Source: Chrysomallon squamiferum (Eukaryota; Animalia; Mollusca). From it: 64,000 nucleotides of DNA. The stretch lies in the NCBI GenBank assembly GCA_012295275.1, contig CM022665.1:32240001-32304000 (forward strand), read 5' to 3'. Both the position numbers and the translations under genes were made by a program. Under the pieces are notes generated by a model. It saw only the letters and a list, made by a program, of their open reading frames with translations, ran no database searches and was not told the DNA's origin. Below, piece by piece: positions 805 through 62,806 of the stretch (position 1 is its first letter; the number at the start of each line of letters is the position of its first letter).

Positions 805-920
805 TATTATTATTAAAATCTGAACCATTTAACTGGACATATAGTACTTTTTCCTTCAAATGTAAATGCAGTCATAACAAATATATTAATCTTATTAATA
901 ATTATGTATTTATTAAACAG

Positions 921-18073: not shown

Positions 18074-18313
18074 ATGAAGAAAATTCAATGGATTGTATTC
18101 GTTCTGTTTTTAAAAATTTTACAGCTTGCTTCAACGCAGCGAGTAGACGCTTGTAAATCTCACCTGTGTACCTGTCAGAAACGTAATAACAGAATGACTG
18201 TTTCTTGTAGAAAGCAAAACATTACACGGATACCCAAAAATATTCCACCCGATACTAAAGTTTTGTAAGTATTGAAGTTACTTTAATATTGATTTTCTTT
18301 ATATTAGACAACT

Positions 18314-18406
<93 letters not shown>

Positions 18407-19698
18407 ACATATACTTAATAAATACATTTAAAAAGTCATATCCAGTTAATACATATTTTCAGTGTTTTTCGCCTATATGTATGCTTGTGTGTGCGTGTGT
18501 GTTCGTGCGTGGGTGTTTTCATCTTTAATATCCCAAACGTTTTAAATTACCTATAGAAGGAGACTATCGGTTGTTATCTTTATGTGTAGACTTCAACTTT
18601 TTATCTAAGTCAACATTCTGTGTTAGCAAAGCATATCTAAATAAACAGTGTAAGTTAATGCCACAAACATAATTTTCTAATAGAGAAAATAAAATTTATT
18701 GAAGGCTTCTTTATATATGTTTTACGAATTTATTTCTGTTTTATTTACGCTAACTACAAAAATAGTCACTGCAACTACTGTTGTTTATACTACATACTAC
18801 TACTACTACTACTACTACTACTATTACTACTATTACTACTACTACTACTGCAACTACGACTACTGTTACTGATAGAACTTCTATAGCTAATGCTTCTACA
18901 ACAGCAAATCTACCATTACTATTGCAAATACAACAACCACTACTACTACTACTATTCTATTATTACAACGTCTGCTCTAACGTTAACAAGCAATTTGATG
19001 GAGTTATTTGAAAAAATAAAAATAACTAAATCAAATGATTAAAGAAAGAAAGAAAAGAAACATACAAATACATTCCAACAGCAACACTGACCATCATGGG
19101 CAAATTAAGTAACTGGACATTTATTCAAAAAATAATTAGTCTCTAGATAATTATATTAATTAGTTTTTATTTAGGGAAAAAATATTTTATATGAATTTTA
19201 TTATTTTTGTTAGATATCAAATTTTAAAGACTGTATATGTTAATTTCTGTACGAATGATTAAATATGTGTGTATGTGTGCTCGTATATTTTCATAATTTT
19301 AAATTCAATGTTTTGACAAAAACATACATTAAAAACTCAGTTGGCGTCTTCCCGTGAAGTTATTTTCATAACAAGTCTAACCGGACTCCGAATATCCATC
19401 CAGGAAACAAAATAGAATAGAATTAATAATAGTTTTCACTATGTTTTTTTTTTCATACCGTACAAAACATGTCTAACAGTAAATAAGTTGTTAGAACGAA
19501 ACGCTTGAACAAATTTACTTTGACTACAGCACTCTGTCACCCGCGTCTTATATTTACACAGGAATACCCAGTGTAAACGTACACAGTGTTACTTTTTATA
19601 CTATCAACTCACGAAACTTAACAAGTTTTCGTTAAGTCTGGAATTAAAAACAACATCAAGCTACAAAGAGAGAGAGAGACCAGAGAAAATACGTTTTC

Positions 19699-19794
<96 letters not shown>

Positions 19795-19940
19795 TTTGGT
19801 GGTGGACGTGTCGGTGGTGTTGATAGTTTTTATCTTTGTGGTGGTAACAACAGTTTTATACTATACCTATCTTGCTTTCCTCTAATTTGGTAACATGACC
19901 TCACAGAAATAATATTTCCTAATTTTTTTTAAAGTTATTT

Positions 19941-20003
<63 letters not shown>

Positions 20004-20189
20004 TGATAGGAATGTCACAAAATCAATATGATAATTTTGGTCTTGTGTTGTTTTCAGAGAACTGTCATCCAGCAGAATTTCTTCCATATTGGAAAAAGAT
20101 TTACAAAATTTAGAACAGCTGGAAACATTGTGAGTAATTTTAATTGTTTTTTATAATGTGTGTGTGTGTGTTTGTGTTTGTGTGTGTGT

Positions 20190-20238
<49 letters not shown>

Positions 20239-20427
20239 CTTGCGTATATGTGTGCGAGAGAGAAAGAGGGAAAGAGCAGGAGATACGTATACATGTGTGC
20301 ATATGTGCTTGCGTGTGTGTATGTATGTTTGTATGTATGGGTCTTTCATTCTTTCTCAAATTTTATATCATACATATGTGTATAATTTCAAAGGACTAAT
20401 TTCGTGTATTTAAAACACTATATGTGA

Positions 20428-20469
<42 letters not shown>

Positions 20470-22585
20470 CAGAGAGGTGAAAATATTCATGTACAGTGTA
20501 TAATCAGTAATGAAATACATTATTATTATTACTGCATTATTATTATTGTTGCTGTTGTTATTATTATTATTATTACAAATAGCTGATTTAATCGGTCACC
20601 TTCTCAATATAAATATGTTGTTACAAATAGCGTGTACACACGTATAAGTAATCCACGCTCGCACATTTACTTGATATGTTTCAGATTCCTCATGAAAAAC
20701 AGAATCAGTGAAATCCATCCCAAGGCTTTTCGAAACCTATACAGCCTGAAAACACTGTAAGTAATTCATACCTGCGTCAACGCATTTTCAGTTACTGGGT
20801 CGCCGAACTCCGTATAGACAAAGACACTAGATATAACAGACATACAAACACATGGTGTCGATTTCTCTCCATATCGCTGTCATGTACTGGTGTGACACGT
20901 TGAGTATTGTTTTAAATCACGTCAACTATTTATGGAGAAAAAATATAAAATAAAAAATAATTAAAAAAAATATTGTTGCTACACAGGAGATATAGAAACC
21001 AGATGCACGCACCTTTTCACAGAAATATTTTGTCATTTAATATGTTATACATGATGGAAGGCTTTATATCCACGATTTTTTGGAGAAATAAAGTATCACT
21101 CTGTGTATTATTAAAAGATTAAATTATATGTAAATGAAATAAAATAAGTTATTATATTTTATTGTTTGAAGAAAATAAAGAGTTAAGTTTTAATAAATAA
21201 ATAAATAAATAAATAAGTAAGTAAATAAACAAATAAATGAAATAAAGAATATTTTTAAAGCTTTACATTCAAACATTTTGTTATAATAATTAAATATATA
21301 TATATATGTATATTGATTGTTAATTATTAATAATTTTAACGATTATGATAATATTACTGTTATTATTATTATAGTAAACATTATAATAATAATTGTTATT
21401 ACTATTATTATATATGTCATAATGTTTATTATATATAGTTGTTATTAACATTCTTCTTCTACTACTACCACTACTTCTTCTTCTTCTTCTTCTTCTTATT
21501 ATTATATGAAATATAATTTTTGATTATGTTTTTTCATTTTCATTATAAAACAAAAATAAACAATTTTATATTTTTTCCCCCCCTAAGTCAGTTATTTTTA
21601 ATTATTTATACTTGGCTCTTTTTATCTTTCAGGGTATTATCAGAAAACAGACTTACAGAAATAATGGCCGATCATTTCCAGCATTTATCCAGCATTGAAA
21701 TAATGTACGTAAACAACAACGACAACAACAACAACAACAATAATAATATAAAAAAATAATAACTAAAATAAAATACATTCATAATAAATAAAATAAAATA
21801 AAACTAAATACATTTAAATTAAATTAAAGAAAAAAAGTATATGATTAAAAAAGTTTATTTATTCAGATAGAACCCATGACATCACAATATTATTAATATA
21901 TCACATTTTATATTCTTATAAGCAATAGCACAATTGTATATATTTTCCAGTGATCTCCAGAAGAATAACATCACATATGTCTCAAAGTTTGCATTCATAA
22001 CCCTGCCCATGAATAAAAAGGTTGTAGTGTAAGTATATACTTAATACTGACTCTTTAGAAACAGAATTTGACTTTCGTCTTTCGATAGGATATTTAGAGA
22101 AATATATTTTATTTCTTCACATTTGTTCTTTCTTAATAAATAATCATATTAAATCTCTCTAGAATACAGTCTTTAATTTTTTAAATATTAATTTTCGTTA
22201 AAAACAGAATGCATTTTTCTTCATATAAAAAACATATCATTACATGTATTTAAAATATCATTTTTCTTTACAGGTGTTTGGATTAAAGTTCTCAAACGCT
22301 ACCAATATTTTTTTCAAAATCCTAGATAATTTGTGCTTATAACAGAATTAATACAGAATACAATGAATTATTTCCACTTCACAAACATCATGATATACTA
22401 TTTCGTTTTTTCAACCAGCATGTTTGGGGGAAACTCACACATATACTGCGGCTGTTCTCTGAAGGCGATTAAAAAGTCTATGAACACTCACTCCAAGCTC
22501 TACTTGGATAACTTACGCTGCTCAAACGTGCACGACAACCTCCCTCTTTCTGACATGCGTGATAAAGACTTCCCATCGTGTACAG
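18074..22585 (+). other. Gene A signal peptide + LRRNT + LRR exons + LRRCT
   Basis: CKSHLCTC...VSC...ITRIPKNIPPDTKVL (LRRNT). Three 72-nt and one 78-nt phase 2-2 exons each encode one LRR (e.g. LFLMKNRISEIHPKAFRNLYSLKTL). GNSHIYCGCSL...LRC...C forms the LRRCT. Confidence 0.9.
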
Positions 22586-24299
22586 GTAATTTGTTAGAAT
22601 ACGTGTGATTTCTGAGAATATGCGTTGCTTCTGAGGACACAGAATACATTGTTTCTTAGGATATATAATTTATTAGAATACAAATAATTTCTTAGGATAC
22701 TTGTAATTTCTGAGAATAGAAATATTTGAAAAAAATGTTTAATGTATACTTGTATATTCCGTGCACATTTAAGAAAGAAAGAAAATCCACAACGACAACA
22801 AAACAACTTGAAAAACCTGCAACTCTTTAATGTAATAACTCTGTAATTTGTCACTCTGTCTGCTTACATAACTCCCCCTTCTCTCTCTACGTATATTAGT
22901 AACATTAAAATTATAAAATAGATTTGTTTTCTGATTTCAGAAGAGGAAGAGAATATTTTCCCCAACAGACAGTATTGTCGTTACTGTTCATCGTCCAAAA
23001 CAAACGGAAAATGTCTGGAAGCAGACCAGAGTCGAGTTTGCCACGGAGAACTGGTAAATATTAGTACTGATATTTAAAAAAAATATATTAGACTCACAGG
23101 TACTAGAAGTGATACTAAATTACACGGTAGATATTAATAAAAAGAGGTGAGAAATATGTGGAAAATATTTAAATTCTAAAATAAAGAAATATGTCCTTGT
23201 ATTATTCTGTTACAATAATGAAATACATTTTTTAAATGTTTTCGTTACTAAATTAGAATTTGTTATAGTTTTAATTTTGTAATTCTTTAACATTCGAAAT
23301 AGGAAAATCGTGTATAGTAATGTCAAGACGTTTTCTTTTTACTTTTTTTTAATATAAACTTTTTTTCAGTGAATATCTGCCAGTTTTTATTTAAAACACT
23401 TTAAAACATTCGAACAACAATACAATAATATAAACAGAACAGTTACTTTGAATCCATGACGTTCAACATACGTGAGATTTTACTAGTTTATAATCATTAC
23501 ATAATTCTATTAATTTGCAATGATATGTAATGAACAGATGGCGTGTATCAACAGCGTTGACTACACCAGAGGACATCTGAACGTCAGCCGCGGCTGTATT
23601 GAGCTGCAAGACTGTATGGCGTTAGAGGCTGCCAACGCCAAAACGTGTGCCATCCAGAACAGACCCAATATGCGCTGTAACTATTGCTGTGTTGGCAATA
23701 ACTGCAACGTCGATCAGATAGGAGGTAAGAATTCGCTATAAATATAATATGTTGTATGCTATTTTTAGATGGAAAGGGTGGATATATATATATATATATT
23801 TATATACATATAGATAGATAGACAGATATATAGACAGAGAGACAGATAGATAAACAGACAGATAGACTATAAAAGAAATCATATTTTTCAGGACGAACTT
23901 CAGACTTCACGTTTTACGTTTCGTTCGAATTGTATAAAGGGAACTACACACCAGACTTGGCTGATCCACAGTCACAGGAATATATCAATTTGACTCGAAG
24001 ACTTATCAGAGCGGTGAGTTCATTTCCACGCTGTTTTATATACAGTATTGTAGCATTAAACATTTTGTGTTTACTTATTATTATTCTCTAAACTTTAATT
24101 CTGAGGAAAACAGTTGGGTATATTTGTAATATATGAGAACATAAAACATTAAATATTAGCTATAAGCTGTATGTATGGTATGAGACTGTGATTGTGTGTG
24201 ATGAACTCTACTCATTTGTAATATTATTTCTAGATGAACGTCGACATACGGCAGACAGAAGGTGGATACTCAGTTACCCCCCTTGGCTTTACGTAAGTT

Positions 24300-24358
<59 letters not shown>

Positions 24359-25301
24359 TTCATTCACTTTTAAACTTAATTTCCCAATTTTTTTTCATAA
24401 TATTAATTACAATTACTATTCATATCATACTTGATTGCATGGATTATATGCATGTGGGTTTGTGTGTTTAAGTGTGTTTGTGTGAATGTCTTTCTATGTG
24501 CTTGTGTATGTATTTATGTGTATTTGTATGTACTTGTGTGTGAGTTTATGTACGTGATACGTTTTATGTATATACTGACAAAGATGGTTGGTCTATGACT
24601 TTTTATATGTGTCCCGCAATATTTTAACAGTTAATAAAAATAAAGAAATCAGTACTAAGTTAATAATTGTTTTCAGTCCTCCTGACTTGGTGACCTATTT
24701 GAAGATTCACAGTACGAATCTGAACACTCACAATTTTTTTCAAGTGAAGATTCTAATTCGAGAAATTATCCAAAACGGGGCGACAAAAGGAGAATTACGT
24801 CGTCTTAGAGTCAGCACCCGACGTCTGAACATCACCCGAACAGGTGAGAATTAAAACAGTCATTATCAGGGCGGATGAGCGATTTCAGAAAAGGATGGAA
24901 AGTTGATATTATAGAGTATTTGATTTTCACCTTCAAGTGAAATTTATTTTAAAGAAAAACAGAAGCAATGTGTGGACAAAAAACAATACAAAAATTTCTC
25001 TAATGATATATATGGTTTAAAGTTAAATATATATATATATATATTTTTTAGTTTAAACAACTGATAGATTGACAAGTAAATAGTATAAAATACGTGGAAT
25101 ATGTATTTACTGTTTTCTTTACAGAGTTTAAGTTCTGTCCAAGTATGTCTGACAACAACGCGAAGGGTAATTTCACTTGGCCTCGCATGCTGTCAGAAAC
25201 TGTTAGTAAAATGCAATGTTCCTTCCAGCTAGCAGAAGATGATGAAGTCAGAATAGCCTCGAGAAGATGGTAAAATACTATATAACAATATATTGGCACG
25301 A

Positions 25302-25389
<88 letters not shown>

Positions 25390-25416
25390 AGAGGGAGGGA
25401 GAGAGGGGGGGGGAGG

Positions 25417-25486
<70 letters not shown>

Positions 25487-26883
25487 AAGAGTAAATGACA
25501 TATGGAAATAATATTTACCAAAAGCTTGAGTGTAAGATTTACAGAGATGGACAGACAGACAGACACACACACATATATACGGTTCATCAGTTGTAACAGA
25601 TAATTATGTTGTTTTAGCGCTATTGCTCGAAACGGAGAGGCAGTATGGGAAGACGCTGACTACTCCAAGTGTGAATATATTAGTGGAACAACTAGAGAAC
25701 TTCAAGCTTTGGAACAGAGAAGAGTTACATATGGTAAGTAACAGATACAAAATATAAATCAAATTAAAATGAGATCTTCAAGCTTTGGCTTCAAAAGGGC
25801 GTAAGACATGGTTAGAAAAGAAATTTCATAATAAAACGTAGGTAGACACCAGATAAGCACATTCAATGGGACAAACATGCACACACACTTATCTACAAAG
25901 TATGTAGCCAATAGAAGCACTGGAATCGTTTATAATACTGATTAACAAACTTCACTTCTTTGTCTTTTCCTTTTCAGAAAATGTTCTTGATATATCCAAA
26001 CGACTGAAGGATCTTACGAAAAACGTGCACAGTTTTAAGAAGGCTGACGTGGGTTTTGCTGTGGCCATCATGGACAGAATTCTGAATGTTCCAAAGGTAA
26101 TGGGCTCGAGACCGACCATTTTAAACACACTTTCTGCAATCAGCTCACTGATGGGAGTCAGCCAGAGCATCCTTCTTGAGGCAGAACAATTTTCTCAGGC
26201 ATCGACAAGGTAAATATATTGACACATTCAAAATCTTAATGTTATTTTATGATAGTAAGGATTAGAAAACTATGTTTAATACATAAATTTGTAGCCTGAA
26301 ATATTACGGGTCGCAAATTCAGTCATATTTAGTTTCTTAAAGACCGTATTTTGCTGTGCTTCGGAATGGGTTTCCATTCATAACATCACTATTATTAAAA
26401 GGTCCAAGCATATTGCTGTTATTTAAAGTTCTATACATACCTAAGGTGAACAGTCTGTAGATAACACATTTCCAAGTATTAGCCACCGCTAGGTGGAGGA
26501 TCATCACTCACTATCGCCAAGGCCTATGAGAGACGGTGGGTTCAGCCGGTTCTTTGTTCCGGGGCCCAAGAGCTAAGAAAGGCCCCACAGCAACCATGTA
26601 ACATCCACACCCATCGAGAACAAGCTCTTTCTACTACCCTCAGCCCGCCATACACTTACATTCACTTACACAAACATCACTATACTTATCACTAATTAAT
26701 TGATTATGTTTGTTACATTATGTTATATCTCATTATGAAAATAAAGCATTTATGATAGTTTACATGTAGACTTACTGGACATCAAATCCTCAATTTTGAG
26801 AAAAATCTTTGCCTGTCTCGGGGCCCCAAAAGAGCCTTGCACTGCCTTGCAAAATTTCTCTTGGAGGCCATGACTATCACTTC

Positions 26884-26930
<47 letters not shown>

Positions 26931-29900
26931 CATCCTTATATAAATAATTAAACTTAATATGTTTTCTCCTAATATTGTTATATCGGTTGCGAAAAATCGA
27001 ATTAAAATGTCTGTTTCTTTTTCCTATATTAATCTATTAAAAGGAATATAAAGTAGCCGTGCTTAACTTACAGAATCATCTTTTACATCTGAGTTATTTT
27101 AACTCGTTTCAGGCTGCTTAATTCTATCAACAAAATAGCTAACAGTGTGTCTCTTGCTGACAATGATCTCATGGTAGTGGAGGCAAATCTTGCAATGGTT
27201 GCTGTTAAGGTGGACCCAGACAACTTTTCAGGTCTCGCCTTCTCCACATCCGGTGACAGCGACGAAAATTCACCTTTGTCTGAAAAGACGGTAAGAACAA
27301 ACTTTATTATTATCATTATTATTATATGATAGATTCAGAGCCTATAGATCCCTGTCGCATTGTATTATTCCCGTTACTGTTTAAATTAGTACTGTGAAAA
27401 TTAAAATGCAATGAAACTTCTTCAAACTGGACCCTGACTAAGTAGGAATTCCTCCCAAAACGAACAATTACCGCGGTAACGTGATTTATAAAATCAATGT
27501 ATCTAAATGTAAATACTCAGACAGTTTTTTCAAAACAAGATTTTTAGTACTAGCAGAAACAGAAATATAAGAAGTTGTAGTAGTGGTAATATAGTGATGT
27601 TGCTTTCTTATAATGCCTTATTAATTATTATTTACAGGTCAAAATAATAAAAGTAAACGACGTCGTAAACACGGACAGAAGCAAGTCAACTACTATAGCT
27701 CTGCCAGAAAGTATATTTCAGTCACTAGGACAGGGATCAAAAACAGTGGACAGAATCACTTTCAGTCTGTACCAGAGCGACAAACTGTTTTCTGTGAGTC
27801 ACTCATTTATTATAAAAAGTAAACAAAAATATGCAGTCATCTGGTCAAAACAAAACAAACAACAACAAAAATAAACAACAGCAACAAAAAAAACAAAAAA
27901 CAAAAAACTTAAAAATAAAATTAAAATGTCAGAAATATTCCATGTTATGTAAATGTCATTAATCTATTGTCGAAATTCTAAAAGTATCAACAATCAACAT
28001 TTATTTATTTATTTATTTTTATTGTCATAACCATTATTATTATCATTATTATTATTAATATTATTATTATTAATATTATCACTATTATTATTGACATTAT
28101 TATGACTATATCTATGATTATTATTATTATAGCTATTATTTAAAACATTAAATGTATTTTAATTTTAAACGTGAAAAGGAGTAAATCATCATATACCTAT
28201 GACTTATAATTCCAACAAATTTAAAGTGAAATTTTAATTAAAATTCGATTAACAAACAATGGTGCCATTTTGTTAAAGGTTTACAAAGAGGCGAGATCGG
28301 GACCAACAATAAATCCAACAGGAGGGTTTGCCATTGATCATATTAAAAACTCTTCTAAAAATAACAATGTCGGTAACTCTGTTCATATTACAACGACGAC
28401 CACGAAAACAACGGTGGCACCAACAAGCCCTACATCAGTGTTTACGACAAAAGTCAACAGTAGGGTCATTGCAGCCAGTATACCCAATGTAGTCATCAAA
28501 AATCTCGGTGAACCTGTTCTTATTTCATTTTCTCATGCGACGGAGGTATGTTTGAATTTCGTTTTCTCGCATTATTAAAGTATTTAAAAAGGGTTAGTAA
28601 AGATAAGGCTTCTGTAACAGTTTTCAAATGGTTGACTAAAATGTTACTCTCAGGTATACCTATTTTGCTACGCATAGATTTAAAAAACTGAGAAAAGTAA
28701 TTAAGGCAAAATGGGATTTGTCATCAAAATGCTTTTAGGCAAAGAGACAAAGACTGTTAATTTACTACATTTATTTTCAGATATCTTTCTTCAGCAGAGA
28801 ACCCATATCCTCGAAATAAAAAATAAAAATAAAAATAAAAAATAAAAATAAAATATATGAAGTAAATAAATAAATAAATAAAATCGAAAACAAGAAGTGC
28901 TGAGTTTGTGCTGTATGGAAATAAAATACGGCTGATGTTTGAGCGTCCCTGTAATTTTTTCATTTTCATACATTGATTTGTTTTCTTGATAAATCAGAAC
29001 GGTACAAAGCCACGTTGTGTTTTCTGGGATGAAAACAGCGTCACTGGTCAAGACAGGTGGTCGACAAAGGGCTGTGCTGTCAAACAAACTGTAGAGGATT
29101 CTTATACAACCTGTGCTTGCGATCATCTCACAAATTTTGCGCTGTTAATGGTAAGCAGAATCAATAACAAAGATAAATTTATATATAGCTATAGTTTACA
29201 TAATTTCATTCCAGGGATGGATGGATGGAAAAGCCACCTAGCTACATTTACAGTCATTCGAAATTTAAAATTTTCTTCTTTAGAATGAGCAGTTTAAGTA
29301 AAAAAAATGAAAAACTGAAGACAGGTAATACATCTTTACATGTAAAATAAAAATATTTAGTGCTACTTGTGTAAATGCGTTCAGACTTCAGTATATCTGC
29401 ACATAATATTTCCTTATTATATCTGAATATTTTATTTCATTATTTTTTTTTTAACGTTACGTCATTTTTAGAAACCATTTGACAAATCTGTACTGTATTT
29501 CAGGATATATATCCGCACGGGTTCTCGCTGTCTGCAGAGGACAAGACAGCGCTATCTATTATTTCTTACATCGGATGTGGTGTATCTGTACTGGCTCTTA
29601 TTTTCACAATAGCAACCTATCTAATGTTCAGGTGGGTAATAAACTAAAACTTAGTATTTCTATATCAAATACTAAGATACTATGCATATGTCAGGAAATA
29701 TAAGTATTAATAATACGTTTGTAGAATTATTTAATGTGATGTTCATAGAATTATTTAAGGTTACGTTTATAGAATTATTTAGTGTCACGTTTATATAATT
29801 ATTTAATGGTTACATTTATAGAATTATTTATTAGTTACGTTCATATAATCTTATTAACAAACCTCATAATAAGCAACATTTAAGAATAAATAAATTACTT

Positions 29901-32900
29901 GTCTAACATGAAATAGCTATCGACAGAAAATTTTACGAATATGTTCTTCACAATATAACAAAATGTATAGATAATTTAAAATTATAATATTGTTTTAGGA
30001 AACTGCGCCGAGATAACCCATCCAAAATTCTGGTGAATCTGTGCCTTACTCTTGCTGCTGCTAATTTCACGTTTCTCTTTGGAATGCAAGATTATGCTTT
30101 TGCAGATACTATTGCGTGCAAGGTGAGGGAAAAACTTTTATATTTATTTGTATTTATAACTGTTTGGATTTTACTGATCAGCAATTGTGTATTTGATCAG
30201 TAACTGAGGCGATGGATCAAAAGTTTCTACCGAAATTGAAACAACAACTATCAAGACTGCAAATATTAGTTACCTAAAGTTAACTTGTGTCTTATTTATA
30301 TTTGTTTATTTACATCTTATTTCAGTACAAATATCAATTTAAGAAATACTACTACTACTACTACTAACTTCTATTACTACTTCTACTACTACTACTACTA
30401 TTACTACTACTACTACTACTACTAAGAATATTGATAACAAAAACAATAACGACAATAATAACAATAATGATGATGATAATAATAATAATAATTTAATATT
30501 AGCATTATGATATTTCTGTTGTGTGTTTTCAGGTTGTAGCCACGCTGATGCATTTCACTTTGCTGTCGGCGTTGACGTGGATGGCGGTGGAAGCATTCTA
30601 CATGTATCTTGCTCTTGTAGTGGTCTTCAAAACATACTTTGAACACTTTATCCTCAAGTGCAGTCTGATTGGCTGGGGTATGTGTTTAATTTTATAGATA
30701 ATATTGATTTTAAATAATAAAAATTTGTTACAACATTCGTTTAAACACAAGAAAAAATATTTTAATATTGCTATTGTTATTACTAGTAGTATTATTATTG
30801 TTAGTATTATTTATTATTATCGTCGTTATCAGAATAAAGATAATTATAATCTTCATTATATTTATCACTATCATCATAAAAATCATCGTCATCATCATAA
30901 TCTTCATTATTATCATTATTGTTGTTATTTTTATTATTATGGCAAGACAAACATCAAGAAGTTATTTACTCGTGGTTTATGTTACAGGTATACCTTTGGT
31001 CATTGTTGCCATAACTTTGGGTGTTGGTTCTACAGAAAACTATGGATTACTTGGCACTGGAATGTAAGACATTAAAAATATATGTCTATATGTGTACATG
31101 TAAATAATTAGAAAATCGAATTATCTCATGATCCTTGAGTATTTGCTTTGAAAGCAAACGATATAATCTAAATAACTTATTAAATCAAATGGGCTGCATT
31201 AAAAATCAAAATAATCAAAATTGAAAGGGAAGCGATTAATAAAAAAAATGGAACACTTTTCGTTAATTTGGGTACATTGATTAGTTACCGAATATATTAA
31301 GTGATTAACAGGAAGTGTGTTTAATTATTCATTTTTGATACTGTTTACACAGAACGTTCGCTAGTGATAATGCAAACTCTTTTCGATGATGATTAATTTC
31401 AGATGCTGGTTAAACAACCCAGCTTTTTACATAGCATTTCTGGCTCCAGTGGCACTGATCATGGTGATGAATCTTGTAGCATTTTGTCTGGTTTTGCGAC
31501 AGATTCTGGGAATATCTGCCAAAAACCTCAACAAGTCTGACAAAGCCAGCACCATCACGCAGCTCCGTGGAGCCGTCGGCGTTGTCATCCTCCTTGGCCT
31601 CACTTACATTTTCGCCATCTTTGCCATAGGCAAGGCCAGCATCGTCTTCTACTATCTCTTCGCAATATTCAACTCTCTTCAGGGATTGTTCATTTTTGTT
31701 TTTTATTGTGTGTTTAAAAAAGATGCTCTCAATGCCTGGAGAAAAGTTTTACCTTGTTGTGTTGTGCTGGACGAGAAATCTAGTGCTACGACAAGTAGAG
31801 GTAAGTTGTTATTTATTTATTTTTATATTTCCTTCGATATTATAAAATAAAGGAATGTTTAAAAGTATTCACGTACTGTAACTAGTTTTTAACACGTGTA
31901 GTCGTGTCCTGAACCGTTAATCTTAACTGCATGTAATGTACCGTAATTTTTGTTAAAGTTATTATTATATTTAAATTGTTCGAAAACAGGGCAACATTTA
32001 GTCCTAACCGCAGGAAAATTATTTGTTTTCGTATGGGTTTTTAATTTGAAAATCTTATTCAGTTTAAATTTCCTTTGCTAGCTCATATAAATAAATAATT
32101 TCGCATACCTTAGTAAATATAAAATCAGTGTACTCCTTTTGTTACAGATAATTATTAGTGAATTTAATAAATTATAAAGGAAATTAATATAATTATAATT
32201 ACAATATAACTATTAAACAAGGTTCAGTGAACAAGTTCGTAAACAACAGCAATACCAGCACAATTTTCAACATCTGAACGGCAACAGTTTATAACATTTG
32301 ATTTAAAAAATATCACGAATTATAATCATTCTGAACTTACCGTTTTACCGAAAGTCGTGTTACAAAGTATTAATTATAAGGAGCGGATCCGGGTGTTTCA
32401 GAGAAATCCAGAGAATCGTGACTGAGTGATTTATGTCATTCATATAAACAAGTCTCGATAACTAACATGTATATCCGTGTATGTGTAAAGTTTTTCCTTT
32501 TCTTTCTTTCTTATTTGTTGTTGTTGTAAAGTAAAAAAATATATATAGTAAGCGGTGGTAGGCCTGTTCAGAACCTCTCACTCATATATGGACCGGCGCC
32601 TGATTATTTTAGAAAATCATACATATTATTTTAAATATATTGTGATGATTTTAGGAGGTGGTCGAAGCTTCAACGGTGTCATACTCTACGGTAAATTAAA
32701 AACAAAATAATTATAGCTGATTTATTACTAATTACATTTATAGCTGGTAGTTAATTTCAGCAACTGGGATAATTCTGTTAACTGCTAAAGAACACTGACA
32801 GATTTCAAAACATTTATATACAGGATTTATAACACACGATATATCAAAATATAAAACAACTCAGACTAAATGCTTTATTATTTACCTTAATTGTTGTATA

Positions 32901-34623: not shown

Positions 34624-34677
<54 letters not shown>

Positions 34678-38554: not shown

Positions 38555-38586
<32 letters not shown>

Positions 38587-38603
38587 CATTATTGTTATTG
38601 TTA

Positions 38604-38634
<31 letters not shown>

Positions 38635-41600: not shown

Positions 41601-41882
41601 GCCGAGTCAAAACGTAGTGTCCAATATCACGTGTCACATTTTTGGGGTATGATTGGTTGAGAAATCTTAGTTTTTATTAAAAAGAAAGACAAAACAAGAC
41701 AAGACAAGACAAAACAAAACAAAAAAAAAAAAAAAAAAAAAGGAAAGAAAAAAAAAAAAAAGAAAAAGAATTTGATTCGTAATTAGAATAATCTTCGGAC
41801 AAGATTCATTAAATAAGAAATCATTGTACTTTGATATCAAGTGATTTACTTGTGTAATTATAATCGGTTTAAAAGATAATTC

Positions 41883-41928
<46 letters not shown>

Positions 41929-42061
41929 AATTATGACACTATTAGAAAAATAGGGATTTTAGTTTTCATTTTATTTTTTACTTTTTTAAAATCTGTATCC
42001 ATGTTTAGGAGGGCAAAATAACCAGTCTAATTACATCATGCGTAACCTCAGTATCATCTGC

Positions 42062-42097
<36 letters not shown>

Positions 42098-42370
42098 TTC
42101 ATGAAAATAACTCAATTACATTAAATACGCAAGCGCAAATATGTCAGATTTTGTATTAAGATGAAGGTCAAAATAAAGCAATACCTACAAGTTCACTACC
42201 CCGACGTCCATTTAAAGAGTTACAACATGAACATCCATACATACACACTTGGTATATACTACTTATAAAAGGGGATACAGTTTTGACATTTTCTGTTCTC
42301 TGTTGATTTTTCTTCAGGTGGGATCAAACCTTTAAACATTTATATTAACGAAAATCGAAGGAGCTGAAAA

Positions 42371-48098: not shown

Positions 48099-48120
48099 GT
48101 ATTCATTTCTCTTTTTTTTC

Positions 48121-48152
<32 letters not shown>

Positions 48153-50374: not shown

Positions 50375-50405
<31 letters not shown>

Positions 50406-53400: not shown

Positions 53401-55301
53401 ATGGCAAAATGGGATCCACCCGATTTAGACAGCTGTAATGATTCTATAGCTGTTCTGGAGCTTAAAATATTACATAATTCTGAAATCACTGAAAGTATGT
53501 CTGCATTTCTTTTCAATAATACCTTAAATCTTCAAAAATTTCATTTCCAATAATAATGAAAAGAAAATTATATATAATACATGCCCTGTTTTGTTTTGTT
53601 AACTAAGAAAAAATATTTTTATTCAGTTTTAATGGCATTGATAATATTTTGTAAGGATGAATCCTTAATAGATACTGGATTTGACAGACAAAGTTTAATA
53701 TTATTAATAATTCTTTTTATTCTGCTTTTTTCAACTTCACTTTTGTCTGTCTTTTTTGTCGATGTCAGAAAATGCTTTAAATGTGTCACAAGATTTGAAA
53801 AGACTTAGTGTGAAAATGGAAAAACATAATCCTTATCAAGTGAAACTTATAGTGGATATTGCTGAAAACATTTTTAAAATGACAAAGAACACTGATGAGA
53901 AAGCAACAACCAATGTTCTTGATGCAGTTAATACAATGCTTGATTTTACACCAGAAGCAATTGTTGAATCACAGGAAAAGGATAAAACATCATATAGGTA
54001 AGATAAAAATTAAATGTTTAACTAAAAAACCCACTCATTTTGATAATTAATAAAATTTCATACTTATTGCTTAAAAAAGATGCAGAAAATAAAAAATACA
54101 CATACACATGCACATTAAGAGTTAGTATTAGTTGAAGTTCTGCAATGACTCTTTAATTGAGGTGTGTTGTATCTTTGGTTGTTTTTTTTTGAAAATTGTA
54201 AAACCTTTCCTCTGCTGATGCCTCCCTGTCCCAAAACCCCAACTAATAATAAAAATGAACGATGCAAAAATACTAAATTAAATAATAATGTATGTCTTTA
54301 CTACAATTTATTATTATTATTATTCAAAAATACTGTTTTAATACTATACCAGTAATTAGAACTTATGCATCTTAAGTATTTTTCCTTTCTTAATTATTTC
54401 TGTGTGTAATCTAAACAAAATAAGAAACAAAATTAAATATTGTATGTTATGTGTGCAAGTATATGTCAGTATGAATTTGTTTTGTGTGAGAGAGGGAGAG
54501 AATTTTATTAATAAAAACATTAAAAGTTACATGGAATGAAAATTATAATATTATAAATAACCAGGATGAGGAAAATCATTATGAAATCTCTAAATTTCAG
54601 ACTGATTTCTGCAGTTGAATTTATGGTTAAAAATATACCACTAAAAAAAGGCCCTTTCTTAAATCTTGGCAAAAAGCTATCAGTTGCATGTGTTGAACTT
54701 TCAACCGTGGTTGATTCAGGAATTGCCTTTTCATCGAAGGAAGTTTCAAACAAGGTGAGAAAAATATATATTTTATTCAAATACTGCTTACTGATAGGAT
54801 TCCTTATGTGTTTTAACTCTTTGGATCATGTCCTGTTTTTCTGGTACAGCCAAGAAATGTATTCATTACTGTAGTCGTCATTTTATATCCAATAAATGTT
54901 GCACAAGATGTACTGAAGATCACTGTTATTTGTAGGCAGATTTAATGTACAGGCAGGCCTCATGACTTGTGTTAATTTAAAAAGGTTTAATCTTAGTGGT
55001 AATGCTGCAACTCTGATGATTCTTTAAATTTACTGTGTCACATCAGGTTATTAGTCTATATCCATGTAATTATTGTAGGTAAAGGTCACAGGCTTTTCCC
55101 CTCTAATGTTTGGTAGTTTGTGTCTGTAGAAATCTTATGTTGTTTCTGGAAATGGGCAAATCAAAACTCATTACATTAATTAACTGTACTGATGCTTAAT
55201 ATAAAGGTCTTCACAGACAGCATAATTTGTGGAAGTTTACAAATAAAAAAAAGACATATGTGAACAGAATAATAATAGATTAATATATATATTTCAGTCA
55301 C

Positions 55302-55336
<35 letters not shown>

Positions 55337-57741
55337 TTTTTTTATTTATTTATTTATTTATTTTCTGTCTTTGGTATTTACCCATTCTTTGTAGACTTAT
55401 TGGTAGCTTTTCATTCTTTTGCTAAAACTTGACTCACTAGATGCAAGCAGTATTCACACAATGACCATCCATTTTTCAACATTGCAAAACTTGATTTAAT
55501 TTGTTTTTTCTTTGACTGAAAATTTGAAATAGTATTATCAGAGAAAATCATATGTTAGACATAAGGCAATAAAATGTTAATTATCAAATGTGAAGTCATA
55601 GTTTGCATCTGAGAAGAAATGAAAAACTGACAATGCTTGTTCCTATTCATGAAACCTTTCTTCTAAATGAACATAAAATTTGTAAATGAACATACATCTA
55701 CTGTTACACTTTCATGATGGTGTTCATTTAGCAAACATTTAATGTTGTAACTGGAATTTCTCAGATACTGCTTTCTGATTTTGTTAGTTTTACTTTACCC
55801 AAAATGAAGTAAATCAGTTAAGTCTTTTGCAGAATCAAACACAAGTGTGTTTGTAGATAATATAAGCTGACAGGCCATGGTAGCAAATCATACCTGACTA
55901 ATTAGTTAACAGAAAAAATTAGTTAAAAAGCTTTTTGAAATAGGTATAATTATTAATTACTACATTATTTTAGGTAACTAACCTTATATATGTGCATAAA
56001 TTGTATTTGTGACCTGGTAGCATAACACATTCATGCACATGTGCACAGCTTAGATGGAACACTTGTTTGAGGATTATTCCTCTTCAGTGCCATATCCTGT
56101 GAACAGCACTGACTTGTGGGCCCAAAAATATAAAAGATCCATTGCTGCAGCCCATGTAATAGTGCTAGTATTGTTTCTTAAAATGAACATATGTTGTCAT
56201 TTGTTGGTTATCAGTTTTTGTTCTGCATCTTTGTATATTTATATGTATTATATTTATATCAGCATAGACATAGATACTTGTTTTTGGAATTACTATCTGA
56301 ATTATTAATTGTTTGGGAGTTTGTTATATTTAAGTATGGACAAAGTAAAGAAAAATTAACAGTTTGTTTCTTCTTTTTTTTCTTTTAATTTCTGAATAAA
56401 TGAATTTGAATATTAGTCTAATAAATATTTTATAATTAAACATGTATCTGTGGCAGATTGATTTGTTTTAGCATTTATGGATTACAGCTGAGTGAGTTTT
56501 AAGCTGGATTTGTTTTGTTTTTTCTCACTTCAGATTCAGATCACCAATCCTAAAACAACACCTACTGATGATATGTCACTGGCCCTAGTTCTTCCAGACA
56601 AAATGTTTAAATCTTTAAATACAAGTACTAAAAAGAAGATGAAAAGAATTGGATTCACTATTTACCATGATGCTATTCTCTTTGCTGTGAGAATTTTTTT
56701 TATCTTAGCCAAACAAACAGTGAAAAACAAATAAATTGTTACTAAAGAAACTCACAACTGTTAATCATACTACATCAAAGTAAAGATGATCTTGATATAA
56801 ATAAAACTTTGGGAAGGCCAACAAAAAGATCACCAAAATGTTAACTTAAAAGTTCTCTTAGTGTATTTTATTATGTTTTATTACAATTTATTTATTTCAA
56901 TTTATTTATTTATTTATTTATTCTTCAGGATCCAGAGACTCTGAAGCAAAATGATTCAACAAATATAACCACACAGATTAATAGTAGAATTATTTCAGCA
57001 ACCATACCAAACATTAGTCTTGAGAATCTTGAGTATCCCATTGTTATTTCTTTTCCACACCTAAAACAGGTAAATAGAAAGTGAAGCATGCATCATGATA
57101 ACAGATTTAATCAATTTATGCTGATGCATTTAGTGATAAAAACTATCATTTAAAAAGAGTTTTCTTTTATTTTCACATTGATGGGGCATCCAAACCAAAA
57201 ATGTGAAACTTAAATGATGATTAATCGAACTTTATCCCTGCTGTCAAGCAAGGCAAAGATAATGCAATTAAATGAAATTTATCTAATGCTAAAGATATGT
57301 ACTAACTAATCAAATTACAAATTCCTACTGGACAAAATGTTTTTGGTTCTGCTCTTAGAAGATATTAAATAGTGATTTGTCAGGGATTCAGGGTGGTAAG
57401 AAATAGGCTGAAACTTTAATCTGCAAGAGTGAGAAAAACAGGAAGAATATCTGAGGCAATCAGAAAAGGTAACTGTATATCTGAATGACCCTTTACTGGC
57501 TATGTTAATTTTAATACTTTATTCCTTCTGGTGATTGTTTGCAAAAAAAAAAAATTAAAAAAAAAAATTAAAAAACAAATTCTGTTTGAAGCTTTTATAT
57601 AATGTAAAAAAAATTAAATAATAATAAAAAAATCTTAATTATAATTTTTCACTGTTTCTTTTTTTCTCATATTACCATTTTATTTTTTGCTTACATTTTA
57701 AAAATATGTATAAAAAGAATTGAGGTGTTATATTTAGATAA

Positions 57742-57820
<79 letters not shown>

Positions 57821-60800
57821 TTATTTTATTATTGATTGTTTTAAGTTATTTTTAAAATAATATTTTCTTACAAATTTATTTATTTTTAATTAGGATGCTA
57901 GAAATCCTCATTGTATGTTCTGGAAATACAACCCAGAAAATGATGCCTGGGGATGGGCTGATGATGGTTGTACAGTTAACATAACAAAAGCTAACTATAC
58001 CCAGTGTACTTGTGACCATTTGACAAATTTTGCACTCATAATGGTTAGTAAGTTGCCTGTGTTTTTGTCTGCCATTTGGTTTTGTTTTATTACTTAAATA
58101 ATAAAAACAAATAAAAATAAATGGATAAATAAATTAAGTTGTTACTATGTTGTTACTTTAAATTTTATTATTAGTTTTTATTTATTTTATGAATTATTTT
58201 CTTTTTATATATTTATTTATGTATGTAAATGAAATGAAGGGCTTTTTAAAATGGTTTAATGTCAGTAATAAGGAGCTAGATGTAGCTCATTGGATAGTAT
58301 GCAATCTAAGCTCTTGTGAGTTTCAAGATCAGTCCTCCATAGTTCATCACATAAACTGTTTCAAATTTCCATAACCTCCTTAACAGTGGGAGATCCAGGT
58401 AAAAGATCCCTTGCTGCTAATCATCATTATGCAAGAAGCATATAACTTTTAGTATAAACATTGTGAGGGTTTGTTAAAACAAATAATTTTTCATTCATTC
58501 CTTCATACCAGTCTACAAAAATATTAAATATAATTTTATCATCTCTGTAATGACAGACTGAATTTTAAAATTTGTTCTCTGCCTTTTTTTTCTTTTTCTC
58601 CAGGATATCTATCCACACAAACCAGTACTGACTGAATTGGACAAGAAAGCACTTTCAGCCATTTCATACATTGGTTGTGGTCTTTCACTTTCGGCTCTCA
58701 TTTTCACAATATTAACTTACTTAATGTTCAGGTAAATAAAAAATAAAAAACTGCTTCTGTGGATCTTGCAAATGAATCAGACCTTTGAGGCTTACTTTTG
58801 GGCTGTTTTTTCGTTTGACCAGTGGTCAGTAATAGGTTGTTTTTTTTGTCTGAAGAGAGATACACATTACTATAATTGTTGACATTTTAGAGACACTCTA
58901 CAGATAAGAGCATTTAGCATTGAAGTCATGCTGAATTTAAGAAGCAGTTTGTCTTGAAACCACATATTTGAACATTGTACATCCTTTGTAGTACACTGTG
59001 TGAAGGCCAAAATATATATAATATATTTTGTTATTCTAAATAATGAGCAAAGTTAGAGTGAAACTTTTTCCTTCTGCATAATGATTGTGGTTTTTTAAAA
59101 ATATTATTTAAAAACAATAATGACTTTTTAACCTTTTTTCATTTTATTTTTTAGGAGGCTACGTCGAGACATTCCTTCCAAAATTTTAATAAATCTTTGT
59201 TTTGCTCTCTTTAATACAAATCTCATTTTTGTTGCCGGAATGCAGGATTACACATTTCATGACTTAATAGCATGCAAGGTAAGTCATTTAAGTTAAATAA
59301 TTTTCAGTGATGCTTTCCAAAAGTACAAAAATAATTTTGTAAAACTGAATAAAGACAAAATAAAATCAAGCATATTATTTTTTAACCTTTGGTATGACTT
59401 TCAAATGATCTAAAACTCTATTTACAAAATGAAATCAAAATATAGAAAATAACCATTCATACATCTTCTTGGTAAATAATTATATATAGTTCAGTTTATT
59501 ATCAGTAGCTATTGGCCATCAGAAATAAATAAAATCATACTTAAAATCAAACATAAAATTTGTTCAGATTATTTGTTTATAGGTATTGTTTAATACATCT
59601 GACCAGTGTACATATTGTATTTTATTAGGTTGTGGCTGTACTGATGCATTATTTTCTACTCTCATCATTGACATGGATGGCAGTAGAGGCAGTCAATATG
59701 TACCTATCTCTAGTTATTGTTTTTAAATTAGGAACTCAACATTTCTTAGTCAAGTGTATGATTATTGGATGGGGTAGGTATTCCAGTCACATACTATAAT
59801 ATACAAAATCCGTATGGTATGCTTACATGTGCACACATACTTTGTGACACATTAATAAGTAGACAAAAGTAGATGTATATTGCAGAGAGGTCACAATATG
59901 TTGTTTTCTTGTTGGACCATTTAGTCAGTTTTATAAACAATATTTGATATTTTTATTAGATGTGAATTTATAAAAATTAACCAGATATTATATGTAATAA
60001 TAATATAAGCATGGACATCTCTTAATGATTAGCAGCAAGGAATCTTTAATGTGTAATAGCCAGCAAAGTACATACTATTGTCCTTAAGAAGCTGTGATGG
60101 GATATTGGAAATAGCCCACTGAATACATAATGCAGTATTGATCATGGGATCCAACACATCTCACATCAACAGTCTTTATCAGTATTTCCCTGACTCATTT
60201 CTAAAAATGTTTAAAACTAGTGAGATTAACAGTTAAAACATTCTGGCCACGTCTAATGTGATCATTGAAAACCAGTGTATAGCATATCAAAATCTTATCT
60301 GTTACTCACGTCAAATTACTGAGTTCTTATGATTTCAGGTGCACCATTGATAATTGTTTTGATTACATTGTTTAATGGAATTGATAGCTACGGATTTCTT
60401 GGATCAGGAATGTAAGCCAACCTATCAACCTCACAATTTTCTCTATTTCATTCTTTTGATTCACCATGTAATTTGTCATTGCATTATCTTTTACTAAACA
60501 CTTATACAAAGCTAACTGAAACATGGTCAACCAAGGTGTAATTGTTATCATACTCTTAAGATTAGATAATCAGGGTTAACTGGATAGACAACTACTCACT
60601 AATTCCTACAGTTTTATTACAACAATTGCCAGCATGCAGTGATGTGAGAATTCAACAAAATAATAAACAATAATACTCATTAGCTTTACTTAGCATTAAA
60701 AACCAAAAGGTTTCTGACATGCATGTGAGCATGTTTTCATAGCCACTTCAAACATATAGTTATCTACAAGTTGAAGTATTTTTATTATAAGTACAATTCT

Positions 60801-62469
60801 GATATGTCTGTCTTAGTCAATGTGAGAAAAAATTAAAGTTACGGAATTTCACATGTTCCAGAAAATCAAATTCTTTGTCAGTTATTCAGTGTAGATCATT
60901 GCCCCATCTTCGGTGTGGTGTTTCACTAAAGTGTAATATGTTTATGTTGCAACAGACACTTGGCTGCCTATTGTAGAAATGTAAATATTTTGACATATCA
61001 AGGTTATGTACCACAAATTAAATTAAATCATACACAAAACACCCCAAAATAATTTTAATAATATATTTGTTGAGGATAAAATGGACAGTTTTTTACCTCT
61101 CTAACCTATAGCATAGATAATAAAACAGAAATTTATGAACTTGGAAATTATAAATAAATAATTTTTAAATTTTGTATTTTATTTTATATTTTCAGCTGTT
61201 GGTTAGTTAACCCCTTTTTCTACTATTCTTTCCTGGCTCCAGTGGCATTCATCCTTTTGATGAATTGTATTGCTTTTGGTATGGTTCTGCGTGAGCTGTT
61301 TGGAGTGGCTGTTCACAAAAGTACCAATACATCTCTCAAGGTGTCTACATTACAGCGTCTCCGTGGTGCTGTTGTCATTATTGTCCTGCTTGGACTTACC
61401 TATATGTTTGCCATCTTTGCCATTGACCAGGCCAGTGTTGTCTTCTACTACCTTTTTGCCATTTTCAATTCACTTCAGGGTGTGTTCATATTTATATTTT
61501 ATTGTGTACTCAAAAAGGATGCACTGAATGCATGGAAAAGAAAACTAGGGTTTGGTGAACCTGAGGCAGATGAATATTATTATGCAACATCATTTGCTAC
61601 TAAAGGTAATATAATTTACATTTATATTATTATAAAAATAAAAAAGTAAAGGAAAAAAAGGAACACATAAACAGACACACACAAATGAAATGATTTAAAC
61701 TAAAATACAGTGAATAAGTGTACAATAATTAGTTATATAGTATGTCATCTATGACACTAAGCCACAGCTGAGGTGATGGATGCTGCTGACATGGTGGACA
61801 CCACTGACATGGATGTTGTCAGTATAGTGGTCATTGCTGATATAATCCCAGCCAATGTCATATTCACCACTGCTTAACAGTCTTTTATCAGAATATTTTG
61901 AAACATACAGGTAAACACACATTTGCTTTTATTTAGATAGACACATCTGTGTATGAAGAGACCATGTGAATCAAAATTGTGTTAGTGACCTGGGTTATCC
62001 ATCATATTATGAGCAGCCTGGGATTGGAAGGGAGATGTTAGTGATCCTGGGTGGTTGTAGTGTTTGTACTGTCATTAATAGGCATATACAGTCTTTACCA
62101 TTAAAACAAATTCTGCTGATAAAAACAGTGGGACTTGTAAAATGTTGCTAAGTCTCTATTTTATCAACTTTTGAGAGTATGTTAGTTGTACAGTAATTAG
62201 TGAAAAAATTGTTAAATTAAGTCTTATTAATTAACAGTTGGTCATCAAAGCAAAATAAATAGTTAAATGAATAAACATAAAATAAAAAAATTAATATATA
62301 TATTTAAAATAGCAAGTATTGCAGTAATAACAATAGGGTATGTCTGATAGTAAAATAAAGTTAAGACATTTATTGAATTTTGATACTGGATAAAAAATAT
62401 TCTTCTTAGTAATTCATCTGATATTTTCCTGTAAAATAAGTAACAGACACATCTATGTATTGAATCTTA

Positions 62470-62518
<49 letters not shown>

Positions 62519-62806
62519 ATAATATGTATGATTTCATGTGTGTGTGTTTGTGTATGTATGTATGTGTGTGTGTATATATATATACACACACACACATATA
62601 CATATACATACATACATACATACACAGGTAAGACAAAGACAAAACAATCAGATATTGATTTGGACCTAAATAAGAGACCAGTAACATCAACCATGTCAAT
62701 GGATGAAAGTACTAGTAGGAGACCACTATCAGTAGATGAAACTCCTCTTAAGAGGCCAGTGTCATCAATATCAGCACAGCCTTCTATTGATCCAAGTTCA
62801 AAATAA
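42371..62806 (+). CDS. Adhesion GPCR gene B, tandem paralog of gene A with the same domain order; ~1138 aa
   Basis: GT-AG exons in compatible phases totalling 3417 nt: 42371-42579, 43010-43081, 44317-44388, 46456-46527, 47197-47274, 47956-48098, 48545-48657, 49378-49567, 50491-50600, 50965-51017, 52155-52318, 52628-52769, 53382-53494, 53769-53997, 54601-54754, 56534-56686, 56929-57069, 57894-58043, 58604-58731, 59155-59278, 59629-59773, 60339-60411, 61196-61605, 62628-62806. GPS CMFW...WADDGC...CTCDHL|TNFALIM; 7TM RRDIPSKILINLC, FNSLQGVFIFIFYC. The first 23 exons match gene A one-to-one in phase. The terminal exon is uncertain. Confidence 0.9.
44954..46414. mobile_element. Non-autonomous foldback DNA transposon with ~590-bp TIRs (Sola2-like) in gene B intron 3
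   Basis: Left arm 44954-45545 is the reverse complement of right arm 45831-46414, with a 285-bp spacer. Termini GGGTCATTCC...GGAATGACCC; 4-bp flanking duplication AAAA (44950-44953, 46415-46418). GRG...CYC ends, 4-bp TSD and long TIRs are Sola2 characteristics. No transposase ORF. The inverted repeat itself is certain; the superfamily call is inferred. Confidence 0.85.
48545..49567 (+). other. Gene B Ly6/uPAR (three-finger)-like domain
   Basis: QCFKC...KC...KC...MC...TRGC...WC...EC...NCTYCCIGDLCN. All 12 Cys align with gene A. Confidence 0.8.
50491..58043 (+). other. Gene B SEA-like + HormR + GAIN/GPS region
   Basis: YYISFQV...PDEYKTLAELI...YSVVFKAFRSPGLQFYYTI (diverged SEA). FC...FW...C...ARFC...AKWDPPDLDSC (HormR). 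LVLPDKMF, FTIYHDAILF, INSRIISATI, then GPS HL|T at 58017-58025. Confidence 0.82.
57746..57816. repeat. (TA)n microsatellite upstream of the gene B GPS exon
   Basis: About 35 uninterrupted TA units. Confidence 0.95.
58270..58505 (+). mobile_element. Decayed tRNA-derived SINE-like element
   Basis: tRNA A-box-like head GATGTAGCTCATTGGATAG, core AAAGATCCCTTGCTGCTAATCAT and simple TTCA/TTCC tail. The core recurs inverted at 60025-60047. Similar decayed pieces at ~34225-34530 and ~63020-63120. Confidence 0.45.
58604..61605 (+). other. Gene B seven-transmembrane region
   Basis: Exons of 128/124/145/73/410 nt vs 128/124/145/76/398 nt in gene A. Motifs ISYIGCGLS, HYFLLSSLTWMAVEA, IGWGAP, CWL, LLGLTYMF, YLFAIFNSLQG. 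Confidence 0.95.
60015..60195 (-). mobile_element. Decayed SINE-like element, second copy in opposite orientation
   Basis: ATGATTAGCAGCAAGGAATCTTT (60025-60047) is the reverse complement of 58402-58424 at 22/23 positions. Confidence 0.4.

Follow-up and report, generated by a model that had tools for sequence, protein, structure and literature searches.

Two paralogous adhesion G protein-coupled receptor genes of Chrysomallon squamiferum with an LRR, predicted LU and SEA ectodomain belong to a widespread, partly reported invertebrate variant of probable ADGRG2/4/6 type

Two neighbouring genes for G protein-coupled receptors (GPCRs) of the adhesion class, here called gene A and gene B, lie in a 64,000-nucleotide stretch of AT-rich animal DNA from the mollusc Chrysomallon squamiferum (assembly GCA_012295275.1, contig CM022665.1, positions 32,240,001 to 32,304,000 of the forward strand; hereafter the window). 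Gene A has 26 coding exons at 18074-37096 (+) and encodes 1217 amino acids; gene B has 24 coding exons at 42371-62806 (+), encodes 1138 amino acids and has its stop ending at 62806, the same end as in the original prediction. Exons were picked by hand from a reading of the window and then spliced by script (23 of A and 24 of B), and three extra tail exons of A were located by tblastn using P0001, the orthologue from Gigantopelta aegis; with these the frame closes, with the stop ending at 37096. All introns used in A and B are GT..AG (23 canonical introns in B), the spliced frames contain no internal stops, and the end phase is identical between A and B for all of the first 23 exons, bearing out the original prediction that both hand-spliced genes stay open. 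The chance that random stretches of the same lengths would all be open is about 1e-28 for A and 1e-26 for B, in a control that ignores the exon picking. The GC content of the exons is 43% (A) and 35% (B), as against 27% in the introns. When the first 23 exons of A were aligned with B, 428 of 1065 positions were identical. A and B are intact paralogous adhesion GPCRs, which confirms the observation.

In gene A, a predicted signal peptide with LRRNT (18074-18264, +; spliced exon, Pfam) is followed by four leucine-rich repeat (LRR) exons (20058-20129, 20685-20756, 21633-21704 and 21951-22028, +; LRR_8 E 7e-18 in the orthologue) and an LRRCT (22419-22585, +; spliced exon, Pfam). A 12-cysteine, predicted three-finger (Ly6/uPAR, LU) domain (22941-23053 and 23538-23724, +) was assigned from cysteine alignment, profile and predicted fold, a SEA domain (23892-24013, 24234-24292 and 24677-24843, +) from Pfam, predicted fold and RNA joints, and HormR (25125-25269 and 25618-25733, +) from the ADGRG6 profile alignment, RNA joints and a below-cut-off HRM match in the orthologue (E 0.001). 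Five GAIN exons (25978..29150, +) carry the GPS site HL|TNFALLM in 28998-29150, five exons (29504..31800, +; Pfam, sequence matches) encode the seven-transmembrane part (7TM), and the cytoplasmic tail (33997-34068, 36289-36366 and 37011-37096, +) ends in the class I PDZ-type motif STVI. Gene B contains a predicted signal peptide with LRRNT (42371-42579, +; spliced exon), four LRR exons (43010-43081, 44317-44388, 46456-46527 and 47197-47274, +; spliced exons, profile), an LRRCT (47956-48098, +; spliced exon), a 12-cysteine LU domain (48545-48657 and 49378-49567, +; Pfam, family profile), SEA (50491-50600, 50965-51017 and 52155-52318, +; spliced exons), HormR (52628-52769 and 53382-53494, +; spliced exons), five GAIN exons (53769..58043, +) with HL|TNFALIM in 57894-58043, five 7TM exons (58604..61605, +; Pfam) and a tail exon (62628-62806, +; spliced exon). 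The family profile scores of B's SEA and HormR were weak (22 and 23 bits). In exon-wise Pfam scans of 29 exons, GPS (E 2e-18 and 2e-15) and 7tm_2 were above cut-off in A and B alike; LRRNT, LRR_8, LRRCT_2, SEA (3e-5), GPR128_GAIN_A, UPAR_LY6_2 (0.049, gene A) and Activin_recp (0.01, gene B) fell below it, and the HormR exons of both genes gave no match. The signal peptides of A and B were predicted solely from the hydrophobic N-terminal stretch.

Three features of these gene bodies were observed in passing. Exon 17 of A, in GAIN (28279-28545, +), holds a Thr/Asn-rich insert of about 42 amino acids that B lacks. Within intron 23 of A, a frame-preserving 36-nucleotide stretch flanked by AG..GT (32655-32690, +) is possibly an alternative tail exon; it has no counterpart in the Gigantopelta orthologue isoform, and as the last exon of A it was replaced by the three orthologue-derived tail exons. 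In intron 3 of B lies a long inverted repeat (44991-46385) with two 555-nucleotide arms that are 100% complementary and 285 nucleotides apart; its outer ends are imperfect, the element resembles an insertion of the foldback or miniature inverted-repeat transposable element kind, and its two open reading frames gave no Pfam match.

The cysteine-rich segments of A and B contain 12 cysteines each, all invariant in 20 of 20 aligned family rows, with a framework that ends CC...C(N). Against the PDB, the top matches of a family profile of LU plus SEA were LYPD6 (2.7e-7), LYPD1 (4.2e-7; aligned in register with all 12 LU cysteines) and SLURP1, followed by a MUC16-like SEA and ADGRF1. An AlphaFold2 model of the LU+SEA part of P0001 was obtained with a predicted local distance difference test score of 91.4 and a predicted template modelling score (pTM) of 0.86. 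Residues 2-93 of this model matched LYPD6B (Z 9.5, root-mean-square deviation (rmsd) 3.8, 87 aligned), GPIHBP1 (Z 8.3), PSCA (8.3) and LYPD1 (8.1), and the three-finger fold that had been proposed for the segment was thus recovered in the predicted structure of the orthologue. Residues 94-208 matched SEA domains with Z up to 13.8 (rmsd 2.4, 115 aligned); the top five fold-match rows of the whole LU+SEA model (Z 11.2-13.8) were all SEA-domain entries, Foldseek concurred, and Pfam SEA was above cut-off for the orthologue's SEA stretch. Gpr126 was not among the matches listed for this model, which is still compatible with kinship. The 12-cysteine segment is predicted to adopt the LU three-finger fold and the next segment the SEA fold, the two packed as one unit. 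As for cleavage motifs, GS[VI] occurred in 2 of 20 rows at differing places and R-x-K/R-R (furin) in none of the 20 SEA rows, and A and B had neither; the SEA domain is probably an uncleaved spacer.

Part of gene A was present in three RNA runs from a single study and in a further run, and RNA joints were checked over 22400-26230 of the window. RNA contigs showed GT..AG joints for exons 8-9, 9-10, 11-12, 12-13 and 13-14; a single contig spanned exons 9 and 11 with 60 letters between them, fitting the 59-nucleotide exon 10, and another continued into exon 15. Of the joining of head to GAIN-7TM exons assumed in the original prediction, the part from the three-finger exon through SEA and HormR into GAIN was therefore seen in RNA of A, with a marginal first link, and the LRR junctions were without cover: exons 6, 7 and most of 8 had zero cover in all four runs, a gap that speaks neither for nor against the joining. 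LRR, LU, SEA and 7TM share a single frame in five Logan proteins (P0004, P0007, P0025, P0047 and P0113), whose contigs measure 4.0-6.1 kb; we infer these contigs to be transcripts because they are too short for such introns.

The top PDB sequence matches of P0001 were ADGRG6 (6e-81), ADGRG2 (2e-79), ADGRG4 (1e-64) and ADGRL3 (6e-60), then D1, in agreement with the ADGRG2/4/6-like 7TM that had been noticed at the outset; its 7tm_2 match had an E value of 5e-48. The alignment of the family profile to vertebrate ADGRG6 begins at HormR and takes in the whole 7TM (607 columns, probability 100%). GAIN structures were among the fold matches of a full-length model of the relative P0047, and its top Foldseek match was the zebrafish Gpr126 ectodomain (E 3e-25, rmsd 20.5), a match at the level of the domains. 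The domain calls of the original prediction were thus supported, LU and SEA by predicted folds and HormR-GAIN-7TM by profile alignment and fold matches. The family SEA and the Gpr126 SEA agree in fold and position, with a profile-profile E value of 0.53. Pfam found neither CUB nor pentraxin in P0001, though both were found in ADGRG6, and no Ig. ADGRA2 and ADGRA3 have the architecture LRR-Ig-HormR-GAIN-7TM; they resemble the family in an LRR head above HormR-GAIN-7TM and differ in that the family carries LU+SEA in the Ig position. All 25 family sequences examined, A and B included, have H-[LM]-T at the GPS, with a hydrophobic Stachel-like strand after the site, and H-L-S/T is the consensus for GPS self-cleavage (PMC13197933 section V; papers are cited throughout for the available parts of their text).

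A search with the last 7TM exon of A returned 101 proteins, the best being P0001, annotated 'ADGRG6-like' (87%), which is collinear with A and 75% identical to it overall (853 of 1137 aligned residues). An LU+SEA profile built from 20 matches and run against 1.84 billion representatives gave 340 matches at E up to 0.001, of which the best 150 were listed, 40 Pfam-scanned and 20 named. Among 138 proteins with a 7TM, 56 scored for LRR and LU, and 39 of the 56 also for SEA; these counts include isoforms, A, B and 22 profile-building proteins. Carriers identified by name come from gastropods, bivalves, octopods, annelids (Owenia, Capitella, Lamellibrachia), the brachiopod Lingula and three echinoderms. 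The gap between LU and HormR was SEA-sized (97-127 amino acids) in the 12 non-echinoderm sequences measured, and the three echinoderm proteins have a Ser/Thr/Pro-rich stalk of 54-925 amino acids in the SEA position. Amphioxus relatives have LRRs, some of them together with a C-type lectin; a lectin is frequent in hemichordate relatives, and vertebrate ADGRG6 has a CUB-pentraxin-SEA head. None of 44 vertebrate matches scored for LRR, LU or the family SEA profile; in the original prediction, no human adhesion GPCR has LU, and LRRs occur in ADGRA2 and ADGRA3. The four-LRR form is found in most snails and bivalves examined, and at least three copies occur in Gigantopelta. When the LU+SEA alignment was used for a word-index search, 3 of 5391 candidates came back, all of them already query members; a full-length alignment search gave 59 matches, mostly unrelated LRR proteins, with two new family members and no ADGRA or arthropod member; and the ESM Atlas returned no usable match.

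Some relatives depart from the common layout. In octopus P0128, P0145 and P0221, the LRR array ahead of LU is longer (5-7 LRR_8 stretches) and the tree branches are long. P0165 (Owenia) is a mosaic of Ig, LU, C-type lectin and 7TM, and P0172 (the brittle star Amphiura) combines LRR, LU, methyltransferase-like, lectin and chitin-binding parts, with no 7TM among its best five Pfam matches.

In a 58-row tree of GPS+7TM, built like the 30-row tree below without an outgroup from other adhesion GPCR families, A grouped with P0001 (100/97), the faster-evolving B, which lacks a PDZ-type end, with Gigantopelta P0022 and P0028 (100/99), and all five together (100/97); Haliotis was sister to this group (97/86). 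These groupings imply that the A/B split is shared with Gigantopelta and younger than the abalone divergence. Judged by this tree, the duplication that produced B took place in a lineage common to this mollusc and Gigantopelta; in Gigantopelta, P0001 and P0022/P0028 lie on contigs differing in size and a tandem order is not shown. The tree broadly tracks species groups. The architecture is an old and wide invertebrate family, and the A/B pair is therefore an ordinary late duplication within it rather than the product of new exon shuffling.

The ectodomain had also been called unfamiliar, and the published record weakens that description. Adhesion GPCRs that bear LU have been published from starfish, molluscs and arthropods (PMC9410279, PMC11595613, PMC13719153), LRRs have been noted in octopus members (PMC6408891), and the SEA-HormR-GAIN-7TM order is known from ADGRG6 (PMC6954182). 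ADGRG6/GPR126 shares with the family this order, a collinear HormR-to-7TM profile, the HL|T site and the best PDB sequence and fold matches of family members. It differs in a CUB+pentraxin head in place of LRR+LU, and the family SEA has no detectable sequence homology to that of Gpr126 and no conserved furin motif; in lacking conserved cleavage motifs it differs from human GPR126 and resembles zebrafish Gpr126 (PMC6954182). Starfish LyAp2 (XP_022094807.1; PMC9410279) is the family match P0137. It has LRR, a 12-cysteine LU, HormR, GAIN and 7TM, shares 37% of LU residues and 46% of 7TM residues with A, and carries a Ser/Thr/Pro-rich stalk in place of SEA; in the available text, LyAp2 and LyAr2 are described by the LU and GPCR part alone (PMC9410279, PMC11595613), and two starfish cases of LU-bearing adhesion GPCRs are listed (PMC11595613). 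According to a 2026 survey, molluscs, arthropods and starfish have GPCRs that bear LU (PMC13719153). Its proteins have LU in a GPCR-like ectodomain, and the legend of its Fig. 2, which probably draws LRR-LU-GPS-7TM, lists LRR, GPS and 7TM; SEA and HormR are absent from that legend, and phylogeny, subfamily name and mechanism from the available text. Octopus A0A0L8GYR2, A0A0L8FLR8 and A0A0L8HDZ7, from group 3, an expansion specific to octopus that was related to six human adhesion GPCRs (PMC6408891), are cluster-mates of the LRR-LU-7TM matches P0127, P0145 and P0221; this group differs in its many, long-branched copies, and its available text mentions LRR (5 of 22) and a Death domain but neither LU nor SEA. 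Neither the full LRR-LU-SEA-HormR-GAIN-7TM layout nor a name for the subfamily was found in the open-access literature (subscription journals lay outside the scope), and the layout is not described in the available text of PMC6900090, PMC8584163, PMC12716839 or PMC11682238. The pair belongs to an unnamed invertebrate variant, probably of the ADGRG2/4/6-type adhesion GPCR, which is widespread and already reported in part. It defines an invertebrate subfamily that databases label 'ADGRG6-like' because Pfam scores LU below cut-off and mostly misses SEA, and it connects three separate published remarks, on starfish LU receptors, mollusc LU-GPCRs and the octopus expansion.

We consider it fairly probable that A and B are orphan, self-cleaving, tethered-agonist receptors of the ADGRG2/4/6 type, whose LRR and predicted three-finger head binds a protein of a neighbouring cell or of the matrix. 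By analogy with known ADGRG receptors, the GAIN domain would cut itself at HL|T with the two halves remaining associated; ligand binding and pull on the head would be transmitted through SEA-HormR to GAIN, and would free or reposition the tethered peptide, upon which the 7TM would activate a G protein. Gs is the G protein in solved ADGRG2/G6 complexes. No new signalling mechanism would be involved. Identity between A and P0001 is 79% in LRR, 81% in LU, 69% in SEA, 67% in HormR, 64% in GAIN and 89% in 7TM; the head of A is thus conserved above its stalk, a pattern that suits a fixed protein ligand more than an immune target that diversifies. Like A, 15 of 23 homologues have a PDZ-type end; B, P0022 and P0028 lack it. 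With its conserved head and retained PDZ-type tail, A probably keeps the ancestral job, and B, whose head is 38-39% identical to that of A (67% in 7TM), seems likely to have diverged towards another ligand or location.

Several points weigh against this view of A and B. The structure models were made for the relatives P0001 and P0047, not for A or B. The full-length model of P0047 has the expected domain order with a pTM of 0.42, too low to fix the arrangement of the domains. The PDB ranking depends on construct length, and no ADGRA chain was in the best 60 of 336 rows. In RNA, the short side of the exon 8-9 joint (LU to SEA) was 30 letters in one contig, against the tool's bar of 31, and the three runs mentioned above are a single study. 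Moreover, roughly half of the human adhesion GPCRs do not depend on the tethered peptide for signalling, even though it is conserved in them (PMC13197933 section X).

Other explanations of the pair were weighed on the same data. One is that the receptors serve innate immunity or symbiont recognition, with the LRR-LU head binding variable microbial or non-self ligands and with copies and heads diversifying. The divergence of the A and B heads relative to the 7TM, the Gigantopelta copies and the longer LRR arrays of several octopus copies would suit such a role, as would the expansion of the octopus copies under positive selection with expression in gill and skin (PMC6408891). Against it, the head of A is better kept than the stalk relative to the orthologue (79-81% vs 64-69%), most snails and bivalves examined retain the four-LRR form, and the tree broadly follows species groups; we regard an immune function, which the original prediction had offered as one candidate, as unlikely, and it is not favoured for gene A. 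The possibility that the genes are an annotation artefact, with a separate LRR-LU gene upstream of a GAIN-7TM gene or with B as a decaying copy, draws on the LRR-to-LU junctions of A and all of B being without transcript cover. It is very improbable, given five Logan proteins, likely transcripts, with head and 7TM in one frame, and a gene B in which the introns are canonical, the frame is open, the LU has its 12 cysteines and the GPS is intact.

In a further alternative, the LU domain acts as a built-in co-receptor of the LYPD6/LYPD1 type that works laterally within its own membrane, with Wnt co-receptors or nicotinic receptors as its targets, the receptor being a scaffold more than a pull sensor. 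The nearest solved LU domains by sequence and fold are indeed LYPD6, LYPD6B and LYPD1, the last with its 12 cysteines in register. Structural identity to LYPD-type LU domains is, however, 16-21%, mostly cysteines, and the family LU is placed above SEA, HormR and GAIN, in contrast to LYPD proteins, which a glycosylphosphatidylinositol anchor holds at the membrane. LYPD6 uses an N-x-I motif on LRP6; read by eye, this motif is missing at the finger tip in 20 of 20 rows. A Lynx2-like role has been proposed for starfish LyAr2 (PMC11595613), but for the present pair we think a co-receptor function quite unlikely, and binding of a neighbour-cell or matrix protein by the head remains our preferred reading.

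A broader idea concerns the origin of the head. In the unrooted 58-row tree, the echinoderm LU receptors stood with amphioxus, hemichordate and vertebrate G2/G6 on one side and the lophotrochozoans on the other (92/86), and a 30-row tree, from which 28 of the 58 rows had been dropped in a choice made after the first tree, gave the same split with a Shimodaira-Hasegawa-like approximate likelihood ratio of 96. The approximately unbiased (AU) test on the 30-row tree did not reject the grouping of every LU-bearing protein in a single clade (p-AU 0.281), and nesting of vertebrate ADGRG among LU-bearing receptors is therefore not established. We tentatively raise the possibility that these receptors form a single orthologous lineage, in which an LRR plus LYPD6/LYPD1-type LU on a SEA-HormR-GAIN stalk was the ancestral bilaterian head of ADGRG2/4/6, kept in lophotrochozoans and partly in echinoderms and swapped for a lectin or CUB-pentraxin in hemichordates, amphioxus and vertebrates. 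If this is true, starfish LyAp2, octopus group 3 and GPR126 are one family, and they offer a natural series of head exchanges in which control of the tethered agonist by adhesion GPCR heads could be studied. The comparison points to an old GPR126-type stalk and 7TM and to exchange of the ligand-binding head.

Elsewhere in the window, exons of a gene for the ESCRT factor VTA1 lie at 777-3467 (+), with Pfam matches to Vta1 and Vta1_C.

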